From the sequence record JQ011317: 44,784 bases of DNA; one strand, written 5' to 3'. The DNA is from Escherichia phage TL-2011b. Numbering within the stretch: position 1 is the first letter of the stretch; each line of letters begins with the position of its first letter. The position numbers were made by a program, and so were the translations under genes. Positions 5,306 to 35,241 of this stretch are shown piece by piece. The notes below the pieces were generated by a model. It had not been told where the DNA came from, did not search any database, and worked only from the letters and a program-made list of their open reading frames with translations.

Positions 5306-5890
5306 TTATTGTTTGCTTTTTTCGTTCTGGCTGATGACAAATTCAATGTAACTTTCGATCTTTGCCTTCTCTGTTTCAGGTAACAATGCGTAGCGCGAGC
5401 GGTCATAGTTGATAGTTGCAGGGTCATGCGGGTGAATCAGTAGTTCATATCCGTGACGCCCGAATGCTGATGCAACATTCTCCAGGGTGGAAATGGAAAC
5501 GCTGACCTCATTGTTTAACAGGCGGCTAATTGTCACCTGGGCGACGCCGGATGCGCGGTGAAGTTTTCCCTGTGTTGAAAGGTCGCGGCTTTCGCTCATC
5601 CAGCGTTCCAGGTTGTGAGCCGCCAGCTGACCAATGTCGCTTGGTCCGACAGGCTGAACCCCCTCCTGAGAAAGCGAGCGATCGATATCAAGCCAGTTAC
5701 GGGGTTTATTGGCGGCAGCTTCAATTTTTCGCGCAACCTGGTCGCCGATAACCTTCTTGCCAAGAGCCCAGCGGTTTACCAGATTTGCCTGAGTTCCAAG
5801 TTTTTCTGCCATCCGCGTCTGAACACCATTGAATTCACGGTCGATCAAGTCGTTGAGATTTTGCCTGCGGACGTCCTGGATACTTTTCAT
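5306..5890 (-). CDS. Prophage repressor (CI-like), two HTH domains, no S24 peptidase domain
   Basis: 194 aa; divergent from the cro-like gene across a 154-bp operator region; two HTH-like segments; no Ser/Lys autocleavage module; no Shine-Dalgarno before ATG. Confidence 0.6.
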   Translation of the reverse strand: MKSIQDVRRQNLNDLIDREFNGVQTRMAEKLGTQANLVNRWALGKKVIGDQVARKIEAAANKPRNWLDIDRSLSQEGVQPVGPSDIGQLAAHNLERWMSESRDLSTQGKLHRASGVAQVTISRLLNNEVSVSISTLENVASAFGRHGYELLIHPHDPATINYDRSRYALLPETEKAKIESYIEFVISQNEKSKQ

Positions 5891-8226: not shown

Positions 8227-8303
8227 TTACCTGATGGGTAACAAAATATTCTTATATCTATTGATTTTGTGCCTTATGTGGTTTTTAATTACCTTAGAGG
8301 TAA
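8227..8303 (+). promoter_or_regulatory. Promoter with two TTACC-N5-GGTAA sites upstream of the DUF1064-like gene
   Basis: Sites at 8227-8241 and 8289-8303; -35 TTGATT (8261-8266), -10 TTTAAT (8284-8289); second site overlaps the start site and RBS. Confidence 0.45.
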
Positions 8304-11589: not shown

Positions 11590-11622
11590 TTACCACAATG
11601 GTAACTATTACCACGGTGGTTA
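11590..11622 (+). promoter_or_regulatory. Tandem TTACC-N5-GGTAA-type sites before the small terminase gene
   Basis: TTACCACAATGGTAA (11590-11604) and TTACCACGGTGGTTA (11608-11622); direct repeat ACTATTACCAC. Confidence 0.4.
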
Positions 11623-14419: not shown

Positions 14420-14496
14420 TGGCGTGGCATGCAGGATTCGAACCTGCGACCAACCGCTTAGAAGGCGGTTGCTCTGTCCAACTGAGCTAATGCCAC
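14420..14496 (-). tRNA. tRNA-Arg (anticodon UCU)
   Basis: 77-nt cloverleaf folded by hand: acceptor GTGGCAT/ATGCCAC, D-stem GCTC/GAGC, anticodon stem ACCGC/GCGGT with loop CTTCTAA, T-arm GCAGG-TTCGAATC-CCTGC, encoded CCA. Confidence 0.85.
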
Positions 14497-14818: not shown

Positions 14819-14833
14819 TTACCTGAAAGGTAA
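14819..14833. promoter_or_regulatory. TTACC-N5-GGTAA site in the tRNA-portal intergenic region
   Basis: TTACCTGAAAGGTAA, 91 bp upstream of the 14924 ORF. Confidence 0.4.
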
Positions 14834-31227: not shown

Positions 31228-31237
31228 AACAGCGAAG

Positions 31238-31250
31238 CCCCACGGTGGCC
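31238..31250. promoter_or_regulatory. Second Omnt-like palindrome between the arc-like and ant genes
   Basis: CCCCACGGTGGCC with core CCACGGTGG; flanked by inverted repeat GAAGCCC / GGGCTTC. Confidence 0.45.
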
Positions 31251-31299
31251 AGACCGTCAGGGCTTCAGTATCGTAAAACTACGTATAGGAATTAACGAC

Positions 31300-32244
31300 A
31301 TGACGAGTATAGCAACAGCGGTATCTACTATCAACGTGCCATTCCACGGCGCAGAGCTTTATGTTGTCAATCATAACGGCGAACCATACACCCCAATGAA
31401 ACCAGTCGTTGAAGGTATGGGGCTGGACTGGAAAACGCAGTTCCGCAAGTTGCAACAACGCTTTAAGAGCTGCATGGTCGAAATGACCATTCAGCTCCCC
31501 GGTGATACTCAGCGTCGTCTGGTTATCTGTCTTGCTTTACGCAAACTTGCAGGTTGGCTGCAAACCATCAGCCCTAACAAAGTCCGCCCTGAAATCCGCG
31601 ACAAGGTAATCCAGTATCAGGAAGAGTGTGACGATGTGCTCTACGAGTACTGGACTAAAGGCCATGTGGTTAACCCACGCAAAGCTAAAAAGGCGTTGCC
31701 GGGTAAAATAACAACTGAACAGCAGGAAGCCATTAAACAACTCGTCATGAGTCGCGGTCAGTCTCTGCCAAAAGAAAAACAGGCTAAGGCGATGATCACC
31801 ATGTGGTCGTCACTGAAATCTCATTTTGGCTGTTCGTACAAAGAAATTGGTGAAGATCAATTTGCCGAAGCGTTGTCTCTTGTTGCTCGGGTTCCGCTTG
31901 AAGGGGAGTATCTCCCTGCTGGATCTGCATCAGAGAATGATGAAGTGGCAGTCAAGATGTTAGATGCGCTTCGTGAGGCAATTAAAACACAGACAAAATG
32001 TTATGGTTATCCATTGAAGCCCGGCTACCGCAGTCTGATTCATTCTCCGTCTGGTGTTCTCGGTCTGACGGAGAACTCACTGCTGATGAATCTGCTGAAC
32101 CAGTTACAGGAAGACGGGCACGATGTATCGGGCGCGGCGGCGGAGCTGACCACCATGTTCTGTTACATCGTTGGTGTGAGCAAATGCCTGCGTGATATCC
32201 AGACGCACGCGGAGTACATCAACGACAAGGCAGGGTTCTTCTGA
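31300..32244 (+). CDS. Anti-repressor (Ant) family protein 1
   Basis: 314 aa; N-terminal antirepressor-type domain (INVPFHGAELYVVNHNGEPY); C-terminal 77 aa identical to the second Ant protein. Confidence 0.65.
   Translation: MTSIATAVSTINVPFHGAELYVVNHNGEPYTPMKPVVEGMGLDWKTQFRKLQQRFKSCMVEMTIQLPGDTQRRLVICLALRKLAGWLQTISPNKVRPEIRDKVIQYQEECDDVLYEYWTKGHVVNPRKAKKALPGKITTEQQEAIKQLVMSRGQSLPKEKQAKAMITMWSSLKSHFGCSYKEIGEDQFAEALSLVARVPLEGEYLPAGSASENDEVAVKMLDALREAIKTQTKCYGYPLKPGYRSLIHSPSGVLGLTENSLLMNLLNQLQEDGHDVSGAAAELTTMFCYIVGVSKCLRDIQTHAEYINDKAGFF
32008..32244. repeat. Inverted repeat arm A (3' end of ant1)
   Basis: Reverse complement is about 97% identical to 33420-33656 (3 mismatches in the first 84 bp compared by hand). 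Confidence 0.7.
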
Positions 32245-32281
32245 CGGGCGGCGGCACAGGGATGTGCAAAACGAAACTATC

Positions 32282-32293
32282 GTGACATGTCAC
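32282..32293. repeat. Perfect 12-bp palindrome GTGACATGTCAC (copy 2)
   Basis: Identical to 11500-11511; 14-bp extended versions are reverse complements of each other. Confidence 0.6.
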
Positions 32294-32294
32294 A

Positions 32295-32320
32295 GGCCGC
32301 TTTCGCGGCCTTGTTCTTTT
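32295..32320 (+). terminator. Rho-independent terminator after ant1
   Basis: Stem GGCCGC / GCGGCC, loop TTTC, then TTGTTCTTTT. Confidence 0.65.
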
Positions 32321-32480
32321 AACGAATGCCACCGCCGCCCGGGCGGGAATCCGCAGAACGCCCACCGCAGCGGGAGCCGTCAGCGGCAGTATCGCTGTCG
32401 TGCTGACAACGACCGGCAAAGGCCTGAGTTGAAGCTACCAGAGACAACAAAACGAACAGTGCAGCAAATGCTTTTTTCAT
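32319..32480 (-). CDS. Small secreted peptide (53-aa precursor), Gly/Cys-rich
   Basis: Textbook Sec signal peptide MKKAFAALFVLLSLVASTQAFA; predicted mature 31-aa peptide with two Cys. Confidence 0.45.
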   Translation of the reverse strand: MKKAFAALFVLLSLVASTQAFAGRCQHDSDTAADGSRCGGRSADSRPGGGGIR

Positions 32481-32550
32481 TGTGAAATTTCCATCTATAA
32501 GCCACCTCAATGTGGCGTCAATGAGTGTAGCACTGACTTTTGTTTCGTCC

Positions 32551-32574
32551 ACAAAAAAGCCCGCGCTGCGGGCT
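32551..32574 (-). terminator. Terminator of the minus-strand two-gene operon
   Basis: Stem AGCCCGC / GCGGGCT with plus-strand A-run (U-run on the minus transcript); overlaps the stop codon. Confidence 0.55.
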
Positions 32575-33118
32575 ATTCCTTCCATTTATCAGAAAAAAGA
32601 TCTTCTTCTAAAGGCATTGGTTCTGTTTTTGTTTTCTCAAAGAATTGATAACTGATAGTGATTGCTTCCTCTTTAAACTCTTCTTGCTCAGTTATGTTGT
32701 GAGCATCTGCGTCAACAAAAAACATAACCAGCGCATCACGATTGTGATTTACCGAATAAACTAAAAAGCAATCACTTGTTGGTATGCATTTTACTTGTAC
32801 AGACGCTATATTTTTCCATGCATCCCAAGATGATTTTTTACCAGTGTGTTTTTTATCACTATCTTCTGGAATATAGTCTTGGTTATCGACATGAGTATGC
32901 CTGACATTTAGTTTAAGCATTTCTGTCGGACGAGCAAATGCAGCATCTTTACCAAGAGATGGATGGTATCCCGTTTTCCAATACTGGGTAAAGGCATCAG
33001 ATACTTTCTTCAGCTCAAGATCAGATGCACAAAGGGCCGAGAAATTTTGCGTATGCAACACTCGACCCTTATATCTGACAACTTGATTTTTATCATTCTG
33101 CGACGCAGACGAACTCAT
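32573..33118 (-). CDS. Putative toxin, YafO-like (181 aa)
   Basis: ATG at 33118; blocks LGKDAAF, LNVRHTHVDN, CFLVYSVNH resemble YafO toxins as recalled; overlaps a small upstream ORF by 26 nt. Confidence 0.4.
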   Translation of the reverse strand: MSSSASQNDKNQVVRYKGRVLHTQNFSALCASDLELKKVSDAFTQYWKTGYHPSLGKDAAFARPTEMLKLNVRHTHVDNQDYIPEDSDKKHTGKKSSWDAWKNIASVQVKCIPTSDCFLVYSVNHNRDALVMFFVDADAHNITEQEEFKEEAITISYQFFEKTKTEPMPLEEDLFSDKWKE

Positions 33119-33272
33119 AATTTTCCTTATTGTTACGAGAATCAAAGAAAGCGCGGGATACGCGACTTGCGTGATCTTTTGTCATAGTAACTTTTACGTA
33201 CTCTACGCTTCCATTGAAAGAACGTCTTGCGGCAGCTTGCGCTCTACGCATCTGCAATTTTTCGTTTCGCAT
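33093..33272 (-). CDS. Small basic protein (59 aa), putative antitoxin/regulator
   Basis: ATG at 33272 with GAGGT Shine-Dalgarno 6 nt upstream; below the ORF-track cutoff; TTACC-N5-GGTAA site 61 bp upstream. Confidence 0.4.
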   Translation of the reverse strand: MRNEKLQMRRAQAAARRSFNGSVEYVKVTMTKDHASRVSRAFFDSRNNKENYEFVCVAE

Positions 33273-33332
33273 GACATTACCTCATATCTCATAAGTTCAT
33301 TACACGGATTAATAAAAATGAAACCAATCCGT

Positions 33333-33347
33333 TTACCCTTGAGGTAA
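33333..33347. promoter_or_regulatory. TTACC-N5-GGTAA site in the promoter of the toxin-antitoxin-like operon
   Basis: TTACCCTTGAGGTAA. Confidence 0.45.
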
Positions 33348-33419
33348 TAGTACGCTATTCACCCACAGTCTGCAATCTGTACAGAATTATTTAAAGGCAC
33401 ATCCCTGTGCCGCCGCCCG

Positions 33420-33656
33420 TCAGAAGAACCCTGCTTTGTCGTTGATGTACTCCGCGTGCGTCTGGATATCACGCAGGCATTTGCTCACACCGACGATGTA
33501 GCAGAACATGGTGGTCAGCTCCGCCGCCGCGCCCGATACGTCGTGCCCGTCTTCCTGTAACTGGTTCAGCAGATTCATCAGCAGTGAGTTCTCCGTCAGG
33601 CCGAGAACACCAGACGGCGAGTGAATCAGGCTGCGGTAGCCTGGCTTCAGCGGGGC
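33420..33656. repeat. Inverted repeat arm B (3' end of ant2)
   Basis: See arm A at 32008-32244. Confidence 0.7.
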
Positions 33657-34115
33657 GCTGTAGGTTTTGTTCTCTATCTTCATCGCCTGCATCACTGCTG
33701 ACGCCGTGGCGTTGGCTACCTGGTCGGCAACCATCTTTATGCGTTCTTCCTGCGGGAGCGAGTTTTTAATGTAACTTCCGGTGCGGCGGATCTGAGGAAG
33801 AACCTCACCTGTAACCCATTTACGAAAGCGGTAGGGGATAGTGCCTGGTGTCACCGCATCGCGGCAGCGGAGGATCAGTGTGTAGAGGCCTGACTCGGAG
33901 ATGATGATCGATTCTTGCTCACCGCCAGGGGTGTCGGTTGAAGCGACGCCCTTCTCATCATCATCAAGTTTTCGAACAGCATCTCGATGGTTTGCTATGC
34001 CTATAGCCCGACAAACATCTGAAGCGATAAACCATGGCTCACCATTAATGACGATTACCCGTATATCGGCTTGGGATTCGAAAGAAAAAATGGACGTGCT
34101 TTTTGTAGCTGTCAT
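33420..34115 (-). CDS. Anti-repressor (Ant/Bro-N) family protein 2
   Basis: 231 aa; Bro-N-like N-terminus (VIVINGEPWFIASDVCRAIGI); C-terminal 77 aa identical to ant1. Confidence 0.7.
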   Translation of the reverse strand: MTATKSTSIFSFESQADIRVIVINGEPWFIASDVCRAIGIANHRDAVRKLDDDEKGVASTDTPGGEQESIIISESGLYTLILRCRDAVTPGTIPYRFRKWVTGEVLPQIRRTGSYIKNSLPQEERIKMVADQVANATASAVMQAMKIENKTYSAPLKPGYRSLIHSPSGVLGLTENSLLMNLLNQLQEDGHDVSGAAAELTTMFCYIVGVSKCLRDIQTHAEYINDKAGFF

Positions 34116-34384
34116 AGTGGTTACCTTTTAGTCTGGTTAATCACCACTACCGACGCCAATCGGTTGGTGGTGAACTGTGCAGGGTTGGCGTAACCGGCTA
34201 AAAGGACCCGGCGCACCTTTCGGTGCCCCCACACAGCCCACCATAATACGAATGTGGCCGTGCTATACGCATAAAAAAACCGCTTGCGCGGTGAATGCGC
34301 CTTTTAGTAATCCGGGACGCCAATCCCGGCACTGGATTTTTCCAGTGCCCGATTACTATGGCACAAGAGGAGTGCGATGTAAAT

Positions 34385-34492
34385 TTACCGCAAAGGTAAT
34401 GATAAGCGCGGGGATATATAAAAATCAACCGTATTTGGTTGGTGGCGTTTAACGCTTGATCACCTGAAAGCAAGATATTACCTTTAAGGTAA
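34385..34492. promoter_or_regulatory. Two TTACC-N5-GGTAA sites in the 400-bp noncoding region upstream of ant2 and the zinc-ribbon membrane protein gene
   Basis: TTACCGCAAAGGTAA (34385-34399) and TTACCTTTAAGGTAA (34478-34492). Confidence 0.45.
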
Positions 34493-34512: not shown

Positions 34513-35241
34513 ATGGAAGTTTTCTGGATAGTTGTTGGTGTGGTTGCGGTGATTATTTACGTTATCAACCAGAACAAGACTAAGATCTCTGATCGTACGG
34601 TCGTTAATCATAACAAAACGATAAAGACCGAAGATGGGGAGATAACGATTAATCGTACACAGGTGATAGAACACACCTCTACTCAGTTTCAAAAAACTGG
34701 AGGTAATGCGCCTAATATTTCCGCACCTCCTGCTTATGATAGTGCGGTAATCCAGACATATTATAAACAGCAGGAGTTAGCAAAAGAGAGGCAACTGATT
34801 CAGCCAAAGCCATTTACAGCAGAGCTTCCACCTGGAGTGTCAACGCGTCCGGCATATCATGGAAGATTCCCTGGTGATGACGTATCGTCTCAGTCACCTA
34901 AAAAAGCACCTCAGGCAGTATCAGAGCCAGCAAGAATACCTTCTGTATCGCCGTCAAAAGAAGAATCAGCTAACGAAGTTTCAAGTGCCCGCAAGCAGTG
35001 TTTGCGATGCAGAATAAACCTTCCATATGAAAAATTCAGGAAATCGTCAAAAAATCCAGATGGATTGACTAAGTGGTGTGCAAGGTGTCTCGATGGCCCA
35101 AAGAATACACGTCATATGAAGTGGTGCCCAATTTGTAATGTCCGCAGAAAACGAACCAGCTTTTACCCTAATAATCAAAATGCGGATGGCTTAATGGCAT
35201 GGTGCAAAACGTGCTGGGACGAGCACAAAGCGAAACGATAG
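34513..35241 (+). CDS. Membrane-anchored protein with two C-terminal Cys4 zinc-ribbon repeats
   Basis: N-terminal TM helix, Pro/Ser-rich linker, two repeats of C-x2-C ... DGL-x3-WC-x2-C. Confidence 0.5.
   Translation: MEVFWIVVGVVAVIIYVINQNKTKISDRTVVNHNKTIKTEDGEITINRTQVIEHTSTQFQKTGGNAPNISAPPAYDSAVIQTYYKQQELAKERQLIQPKPFTAELPPGVSTRPAYHGRFPGDDVSSQSPKKAPQAVSEPARIPSVSPSKEESANEVSSARKQCLRCRINLPYEKFRKSSKNPDGLTKWCARCLDGPKNTRHMKWCPICNVRRKRTSFYPNNQNADGLMAWCKTCWDEHKAKR

Follow-up and report, generated by a model that had tools for sequence, protein, structure and literature searches.

YafO of Escherichia coli K-12 is an mRNA endoribonuclease (PMC8546651), and whether its activity depends on the ribosome is disputed (PMC8546651, PMC11980606). 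Its family, PF13957, is one of 13 families of monodomain toxins with the BECR fold and has an antitoxin-then-toxin gene order (PMC11980606). In K-12, yafNO is part of the chromosomal dinB-yafNOP operon, and YafO (132 aa) is paired with YafN, an acidic protein of 97 aa from the Phd/YefM family. Autoregulation is common among type II antitoxins (PMC11869752). In HigB systems, the toxin gene comes first and the antitoxin, HigA, is of the HTH type. Accessory genes of prophages may also take the form of morons, autonomous promoter-to-terminator units that lie between conserved phage genes, vary in presence and cargo, and in the classic case are expressed in the lysogen. Among the epsilon15/phiV10-like podoviruses (Uetakevirus), phage ZX5 has a repressor that is reported to be identical in sequence to that of phiV10; when it was overexpressed, the endolysin and holin genes lost more than 99.9% of their transcription and no free phage was left (PMC9782041).

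Here, we describe a pair of genes in Escherichia phage TL-2011b (sequence record JQ011317), whose whole 44,784-nt stretch is referred to as the window. A sequence-only reading had proposed that the pair is a toxin-antitoxin-like bicistron with its own terminator and a TTACC-N5-GGTAA site ahead of it. Like K-12 yafNO, it combines a product assigned to PF13957 with an antitoxin-then-toxin order and with reading frames that are adjacent or overlapping, an order unlike that of the HigB systems. Unlike the K-12 pair, it is phage-borne and lies behind a phage operator, and its small partner is 59 aa long, basic, and unrelated to YafN. In our judgment, these two genes probably form a module with the architecture of a type II toxin-antitoxin system, in a slot of a Uetakevirus prophage gated by the phage repressor.

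Layout of the gene pair

All of the features of the pair are on the minus strand. Its upstream neighbor is the BRO-N antirepressor gene (34115..33420), which ends in a terminator-like hairpin (GGCACA-GGGA-TGTGCC, 33411..33396) followed by a T/A-rich tail; this hairpin forms the left border of the slot. Direct reading then places a sigma-70-type promoter, with a -35 element TTGCAG at 33375..33370, a spacer of 17 nt, and a -10 element TACTAT at 33352..33347. The palindrome TTACC-N5-GGTAA (TTACCTCAAGGGTAA on the minus strand) occupies 33347..33333, and its last base is 61 nt upstream of the first start codon, where the sequence-only reading had put it.

The small open reading frame (ORF) runs from an ATG at 33272 to a TGA at 33095..33093 and encodes a protein of 59 aa with a pI of 10.0. 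Its Shine-Dalgarno sequence, GAGG (33283..33280), lies 7 nt ahead of the ATG; the position (33093-33272) and the Shine-Dalgarno site described for this basic protein are both confirmed. The large ORF, for a putative mRNA endoribonuclease toxin of the YafO family, extends from an ATG at 33118 to a TAG at 32575..32573, with AAGGA (33128..33124) 5 nt ahead of its start; the product has 181 aa and is acidic (pI 5.8). The overlap of 26 nt between the two frames (33118..33093) is also as had been described. An alternative start at TTG 33145, which would give 190 aa, was rejected because the homologues all begin with MSSSAS and PGAP calls the 181-aa form. An intrinsic terminator (AGCCCGCAGCGCGGGCT, then TTTTTT; 32574..32558) overlaps the TAG stop codon. 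It forms the right border of the slot and is the terminator that had been ascribed to the operon.

Two other elements were considered and set aside. The 5' UTR contains a 7-bp inverted repeat (ACGGATT-N15-AATCCGT), but its RNA fold does not surpass that of shuffled sequences (z -0.52) and the repeat is not conserved among other cassettes. A 292-nt inverted repeat raised the idea that the cassette is an invertible segment, but there was no inversion among 44 loci. The upstream arm of this repeat is retained in 38 of the 44, always in one and the same orientation relative to the cassette, and is absent in 6, while the second arm is found in only 7. In the public annotation, the 59-aa gene is uncalled in some RefSeq records, e.g., NZ_CP020106.

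Conservation of the pair

Among the Enterobacterales, 27 proteins are close relatives of the large protein, with identities from 45 to 98%. We compared approximately 48 loci drawn from genomes, metagenomes, and viral contigs, and in all of them an upstream ORF of 55-63 aa is found whose frame runs 8-26 nt into that of the large gene. Sequence identity declines in step for the two products, from 83% (small) and 80% (large) to 37% and 44%, respectively. A profile search with the small protein returned 34 clusters of 50-86 aa (mostly 59-60), none of them named. Many of these share contigs with toxin clusters, and the two families have similar cluster counts; in one example, the small and large proteins are the neighboring locus tags R9X49_20450 and R9X49_20455. 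Within E. coli, 60 of 5,426 complete genomes carry at least 80% of the region 32250-33420, which includes the cassette.

Both genes are under purifying selection by the Nei-Gojobori method. For the small gene, dN/dS is 0.13-0.33 over its 50 non-overlapping codons, and we therefore regard this ORF as a real gene; for the large gene, selection is stronger, with a dN/dS of 0.05-0.14.

We found the pair in no fewer than three unrelated phage settings. In the epsilon15/phiV10-like podoviruses it lies 3' of the BRO-N antirepressor gene; in a siphovirus-like contig (L004) it lies among tail genes; and in a Kosakonia myovirus-type prophage (L005/L099) it occupies the interval from the lysis genes to the HNH/terminase genes. 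Because it is found in several unrelated settings, the pair behaves as a mobile two-gene cassette. Its genes are adjacent, co-directional, and conserved together, as expected for the single operon of a type II module. Together with the 26-nt overlap and a promoter and terminator of its own, the conservation across the approximately 48 loci agrees with the bicistron that the sequence-only reading had proposed, and we hold the toxin-antitoxin-type identity of the pair to be quite probable.

The small protein

The two products carry opposite charges, the small one basic and the large one acidic, and the small family is strongly basic throughout, with a pI of approximately 9-10 in all orthologues. 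Searches of Pfam, NCBIfam, PADLOC, and PDB gave no match for the 59-aa protein. Its sole family is PHROG 6685, to which no function is assigned there. It is not a member of a recognized antitoxin family, which for YafO would be that of YafN (Phd/YefM), and a comparison of the 59-aa family with YafN by hhalign revealed no similarity (E 0.31). The gene order, the overlap, the strict co-inheritance and co-variation of the two genes, and the complementary charge of their products lead us to consider the 59-aa protein the probable cognate antitoxin or partner.

Upstream partners are found in the wider YafO family too, and they are of varying family. For example, a YafO homologue of canonical length (131 aa) is preceded by a 95-aa partner with a faint match to the Phd/YefM family (PF02604), and other long YafO forms are preceded by unclassified proteins of 63, 73, 98, 113, and 139 aa. 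Close to the C-terminus of the small protein is the motif V.(M/L)(S/T)...A..(V/I)SR..F, which recurs in several such partners and may hint at relatedness. When the small-protein family was compared with the partners of long YafO homologues by hhalign, E values were 0.02-0.4, which is not significant.

Promoter and operator

The cassette promoter was passed over by a generic scan because its -35 element matches at only three of six positions. Homologous cassettes have TTGACG-17-NANNAT in an identical register. The operator at 33333..33347 shares the last T of the -10 element and spans about -7 to +8. The same motif, TTACC-N5-GGTAA, occurs 10 times exactly in the window and 14 times with no more than one mismatch, where 0.6 would be expected. 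The gene for a 194-aa HTH regulator (5306..5890, minus strand) is flanked on either side by paired sites, placed like OL and OR, and further sites are found ahead of the integrase, replication, terminase, head, and tail-spike genes and the antirepressor operon. Fusion of the site to a -10 element is seen elsewhere as well, at 8227 (TATAAT-TACC), 8289 (TTTAAT-TACC), 11590 (TACTAT-TACC), and 34399 (TATCAT-TACC).

The sequence-only reading had listed the palindrome as a part of the operon, and on this point our analysis departs from it. Phage phiV10, which has no YafO-type cassette, carries the motif at 14 corresponding places, and its repressor, p40, is identical to that of the window at 191 of 194 residues (98%). 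In epsilon15 (NC_004775.2), which also has no cassette, ATTACC-N5-GGTAAT sites are annotated as "protein_bind: repressor, lysogeny". The half-sites and spacing of the epsilon15 and phiV10 repressor sites are the same as at 33333-33347, and each of these genomes has 14-15 sites. When operator and repressor were compared for co-variation, the epsilon15 repressor was only 43% identical to that of the window and the motif was unchanged. The site at the cassette is a palindrome at a promoter in a genome that encodes a cognate repressor, which is what defines a Uetakevirus repressor operator. As far as sequence comparison can tell, TTACC-N5-GGTAA is a genome-wide Uetakevirus operator that marks nearly every transcription unit of the phage genus and is not private to the toxin-antitoxin pair. 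No other operator-like site is present at the cassette promoter. What distinguishes the window from epsilon15 and phiV10 is that here a predicted operator adjoins an accessory toxin-type cassette.

Most economically, the prophage repressor would act on the cassette promoter to repress it, a reading that we hold to be somewhat probable. Because a repressor operator sits on the promoter, expression is predicted on derepression and not constitutively. The cassette resembles a prophage moron in being an autonomous promoter-to-terminator unit between conserved phage genes with varying presence and cargo, but the expression in the lysogen that is typical of a classic moron is not expected from a promoter that carries the operator of the lysogeny repressor.

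Two diverged copies of the cassette bear on a different account, in which the module is self-contained, constitutive, and autoregulated, the palindrome is its own operator and is bound by the 59-aa protein or by the complex, and the role is prophage addiction or abortive-infection defense in the lysogen. In the Kosakonia prophage L099 and the unrelated viral contig L095, the cassette is accompanied by the promoter and by an operator with perfect half-sites, although toxin identity is only 57-65%. Within the compared 10 kb on either side, these two loci have nothing else in common with the window phage, and over 20 kb of each, no intergenic site other than the cassette operator is present. From these copies, the cassette itself could supply the operator-binding protein; the strong basicity of the small protein and the common autoregulation of type II antitoxins would fit. 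However, searches of Pfam and NCBIfam detected no DNA-binding domain in the 59-aa protein, and both copies still have the antirepressor terminator's tail. On this evidence, the cassettes of L099 and L095 may be recent exports from a Uetakevirus slot, their promoter copied along with them. The same account must also accommodate the cassette-less phages, where the motif includes the pairs that flank the repressor gene and sites annotated as those of the repressor, and the sister phages, where an identical promoter and operator stand ahead of at least five unrelated cargos, none with a homologue of the 59-aa protein. Searches of defense-system models are relevant too, as the sequence-only reading had raised a role in phage defense. 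No PADLOC-DB v2.0.0 model matched either protein, or the downstream 54-aa protein, at E values up to 1. Overall, we consider a self-contained, autoregulated module unlikely.

The slot and its cargos

Regulation by the prophage repressor, the reading that we prefer, accords with what is found at the same position in related phages. In phiv142-3, the upstream terminator, the promoter, and the operator are base-for-base identical to those of the window and the downstream terminator is the same, but the cargo is different and consists of a 55-aa ORF and an unannotated ORF of approximately 146 aa. In phiV10, the slot is empty. The hairpin at the end of the antirepressor gene is kept in diverged loci with compensatory changes (GGCGCA...TGCGCC).

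A 22-mer over the -10 element and the operator was found at 69 loci among IMG/VR viral contigs. From this anchor to the shared terminator, which also closes the alternative cargos, there are at least six cargo types. The YafO-type pair is present at 16 loci, a pair of 55 and 146 aa at 13, a 210-aa protein at 11, a related 211-aa protein at 5, a pair of 69 and 288 aa (the latter a membrane protein) at 3, and a pair of 72 and 125 aa at 1. The alternative cargos had no match in PADLOC or Pfam. The 146-aa cargo is only faintly similar to the YafO profile (E 0.014). In one copy of the YafO-type pair, the toxin gene is frameshifted and the small gene is intact; this is a single metagenomic case and could be a sequencing error. 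Taken together, the comparisons indicate that in this epsilon15/phiV10-like (Uetakevirus) prophage the regulatory slot is fixed and the cassette is a cargo that can be exchanged.

The large protein

The sole Pfam match of the 181-aa protein is YafO_toxin (PF13957; E 8e-6), over residues 46-152 and model positions 3-92 of 101. The match is marginal: it scores 26.3 bits, 1.3 bits over the gathering cut-off of 25. The resemblance to YafO-type toxins that had been noticed in its conserved blocks is borne out by this narrow pass. Of the two products, then, the Pfam search that had been suggested as a check succeeded for the large one and gave no family for the small one. The family is also matched by 39 of 58 relatives in our alignment (A3), and the name given by PGAP to the corresponding RefSeq protein, WP_001544814.1, is "type II toxin-antitoxin system YafO family toxin". 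A search of NCBIfam with both proteins returned only noise.

Direct comparison with K-12 YafO is weak, with an hhalign E value of 0.006 over 51 columns and no significant BLASTP match. Homology to canonical YafO was instead found by profile search. The HMM of the long subfamily collects 70 representative clusters that grade down to proteins of 130 aa, and a second profile search with the long subfamily reached proteins of 131-134 aa that are named YafO by their sources, at E values of 1e-12 to 1e-20. The motifs F..Y...G..P.FG(K/R)D...P, ..H.H, and TSD..L.Y......AH are common to the 181-aa protein and K-12 YafO. Across long and canonical YafO, F43 and Y121 are invariant, and R19, G50, P53, G56, D58, H76, T114, L119, and H140 are at least 90% conserved. 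The 181-aa protein differs from canonical YafO in an insertion of approximately 36 residues at 78-113, in a conserved acidic C-terminal tail of 18 residues (MPLEEDLFSDKW), and in being net acidic. From these profiles and motifs, it is an extended, divergent member of the YafO family. The acidic pI of the large protein is unusual for a ribosome- or RNA-binding toxin and counts against a toxin reading.

An AlphaFold model built on a 57-sequence alignment that included canonical YafO had a pLDDT of 90.2 and a pTM of 0.85; an earlier run with only 23 close homologues had a pLDDT of 58 and was unusable. The predicted model has the RelE-like alpha/beta fold of the RelE/ParE (BECR) superfamily, that is, the fold of the RelE, HigB, and YoeB mRNA endoribonucleases. 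Compared with HigB2 of Vibrio cholerae (5mje), HigB1 of M. tuberculosis (7nbu), and RelE/YoeB, identity is 3-17% and approximately 75 extra residues are present here. Foldseek searches with the 181-aa model against PDB and the BFVD viral models gave nothing significant. In PDB, sequence searches that started from either protein or from the family profile, canonical YafO included, found no solved relative; matches to a designed repeat protein were spurious. We infer that the large protein cleaves mRNA and arrests growth.

A fold of this kind need not belong to a toxin. RegB of phage T4 is a phage-encoded RNase that is structurally related to RelE/YoeB. The large protein could, in the same way, be a developmental RNase with a RelE fold that is made after derepression and remodels mRNAs of the host or the phage. 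The small protein would then serve it as an accessory or specificity subunit and not as an inhibitor. The predicted fold, being that of ribosome-associated mRNases, is consistent with such a role, as is a promoter wired to the lysis-lysogeny repressor like those of other lytic units. However, the gene order, overlap, and strict co-inheritance of the pair are the signature of a toxin-antitoxin system, and the cassette is dispensable and swapped among sister phages. Its presence in late-gene regions, among tail genes or between lysis and terminase genes, is moron-like and not developmental, and the frameshifted large gene beside an intact small gene looks as if the toxin decays first. We regard a developmental role as quite unlikely. 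That the large protein is a dead RelE-fold relic or a non-nuclease, in a pair with no toxic activity, is very improbable: its overall acidity, the 36-residue insertion and 18-residue tail absent from canonical YafO, and an active site of YafO that the literature consulted does not define speak for it, but a dN/dS of 0.05-0.14, the residues Arg19, Asp58, His76, Tyr121, and His140 common to the long subfamily and canonical YafO, and a tightly coupled partner gene that is always kept speak against it.

Discussion

If the pair is a toxin-antitoxin module under the control of the prophage repressor, as we favor, its parts would work as follows. The large protein would be an mRNA endoribonuclease that arrests growth, and the small protein would bind and neutralize it, so that the pair would operate in the manner of yafNO and the higBA and relBE modules. 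We assign neutralization to the small protein because the putative antitoxin comes first, as in yafNO, because the two proteins are of opposite charge, and because their translation is probably coupled. Transcription would be controlled by the 194-aa HTH prophage repressor, instead of or besides autoregulation by the antitoxin. The module would be silent or weakly expressed in a stable lysogen and would be turned on once the repressor is missing or has been inactivated, namely in a fresh infection, on induction, or under attack by an antirepressor. Several roles could follow from this, including the shut-off of the host or of a competitor during lytic growth, a guard on the loss of the repressor, or defense or addiction through leaky expression. 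Since repression is predicted in the lysogen, a simple constitutive role in addiction or defense is less likely.

A more speculative idea, to which we give little credence, concerns the slot as a whole. The position 3' of the antirepressor gene could be a repressor-gated "trigger" locus, a fixed frame in which toxin-like cargos are swapped, among them the YafO-type pair, the pair of 55 and 146 aa with its faint YafO-like motifs, and at least four more. Transcription of the toxin-antitoxin module would then be outsourced to the lysis-lysogeny repressor, and only loss of the repressor, or an attack on it such as that by the antirepressor of a superinfecting phage, would set off the toxin, so that the integrity of the repressor is guarded. 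In a sharper version of this idea, the 59-aa protein may itself recognize ATTACC-N5-GGTAAT and couple the status of the toxin-antitoxin module to the phage regulon.

The basic identification of the large protein is not new, since the family name of the toxin is already in RefSeq. The extended subfamily, the family of 59-aa partners, the wiring to the repressor operator, and the slot with multiple cargos appear to be undescribed; our literature searches on the long subfamily, its WP accession, and toxin-antitoxin modules of Uetakevirus found nothing specific. For annotation, the gain is the 59-aa gene and the 146-aa cargo gene of phiv142-3, and the cargos of the slot provide a short list of uncharacterized candidate genes. 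YafO is among the less well-characterized RNase toxins of E. coli, and the long, phage-borne subfamily represents a second, divergent lineage. Its pairing with a minimal partner of 59 aa could help to show what regions of the toxin are required for its activity and for its neutralization. With its promoter wiring and shared frame, this locus offers toxin-type genes whose link to the lysis-lysogeny switch can be tested directly.

Operator sites across the genome

The palindrome (A)TTACC-N5-GGTAA(T) occurs 14 times in the whole window when at most one mismatch is allowed, against 0.6 occurrences expected. The 15-mers start at 135, 5172, 5234, 5946, 5994, 8227, and 8289 in the first half of the set and at 11590, 11608, 14819, 33333, 34385, 34478, and 35597 in the second. 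Palindrome pairs lie on either side of the gene for a 194-aa helix-turn-helix (HTH) repressor (5306..5890), in a layout like that of OL and OR, and almost all remaining transcription units have one or two palindromes each, many of them fused to the -10 hexamer. The same set was found in the related phages phiV10 and epsilon15, and the epsilon15 record annotates these palindromes as repressor sites. Near the operator at 14819, a tRNA-Arg gene with anticodon TCT (14420-14496, minus strand) lies within the prophage, in the terminase/portal interval.

A slot with variable cargo

The YafO-type pair, on the minus strand, consists of a 59-aa ORF (33272..33093), the probable antitoxin, and a 181-aa ORF (33118..32573), the putative toxin. 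It occupies a slot 3' of the BRO-N antirepressor gene that, in related loci (phiv142-3 and IMG/VR loci L105-L171), keeps an identical promoter, operator, and terminator around at least six different cargos. These cargos encode products of 55 and 146 aa, 210 aa, 211 aa, 72 and 125 aa, and 69 and 288 aa (the last a membrane protein), or the YafO-type pair itself; Pfam and PADLOC gave no match for any of the other five. In phiv142-3 (MN187550; slot at 1690-2520), the 146-aa ORF is unannotated; a YafO-like motif is faintly recognizable in its product (hhalign E 0.014). A gene 3' of the cassette terminator encodes a 54-aa protein (32319-32483, minus strand) that belongs to PHROG 14503, "membrane associated protein", has a signal-peptide-like N-terminus, and is kept in sister phages irrespective of the slot cargo. 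This gene ends at a hairpin that resembles a terminator (32294-32311; plus-strand call) and separates it from the Ant gene, which is transcribed toward it.

Copies of the cassette elsewhere

Two 41,027-bp records from E. coli of ducks, NZ_CP079771.1 and NZ_CP079768.1, carry the cassette at 97.8% identity. They were deposited as non-mobilizable plasmids, but their size is that of a Uetakevirus genome, and they are probably circular phage genomes. Annotation of the small gene also varies: in NZ_CP020106.1 (6867-7169), RefSeq has no call for the 59-aa gene and the gap between the toxin and BRO-N genes is featureless, whereas other records call it a hypothetical protein. In one metagenomic copy (IMGVR_UViG_3300045988_122777), the large gene is split by a frameshift and the 59-aa gene is intact, as would be expected of a toxin that decays first, although this is a single case and may reflect an assembly error. 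Three cassette lineages (L040, L005, and L046) have a second palindrome 5' of the small ORF, TGACGG-N2-CCGTCA, which encloses the -35 hexamer; the L046 version has one mismatch. The window's copy of the cassette lacks this palindrome, which might be an extra operator in these lineages.

Two antirepressor modules

Immediately 5' of the BRO-N antirepressor gene (34115..33420), Rfam matches to isrK (34348..34273; 76.7 bits) and C4 antisense RNA (34248..34163; 77.7 bits), both on the minus strand, exceed their gathering scores. An operator-fused promoter, TTGATT-18-TATCAT (34428..34399), lies ahead of them, and the arrangement resembles an immI leader of P1/P7 type, here in a podovirus. Divergent from this operon, with the operator at 34478 just 5' of its start, is a gene for a 242-aa protein (34513-35241, plus strand; PHROG 6762), the C-terminal 45 residues of which have weak matches to endonuclease VII/HNH and Lar-like restriction-alleviation families.

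Region 31231-32244 holds another antirepressor module, this one of P22 type. Its parts are a sar antisense RNA (31298..31231; 44.8 bits, with the gathering score at 43), an Ant gene with a P22_AR_N domain (31300..32244, plus strand), and an upstream gene placed where a near-identical E. coli prophage has an annotated Arc-family gene. The two modules converge on the cassette, which is flanked by a 292-nt inverted repeat (31976-32267 and 33397-33688; 91% complementary). No sign of inversion of the cassette segment was seen among the related loci compared: the upstream arm is kept in 38 of 44, with identical orientation relative to the cassette in all 38, and the second arm was found in only seven. 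The repeat exists because both antirepressor genes have a common C-terminal domain of about 80 aa, and it looks like a product of antirepressor domain shuffling, in which BRO-N, ORF6N, and P22_AR_N heads would share a tail. With the BRO-N and P22-type modules both present, the prophage has two antirepressors under different regulation.
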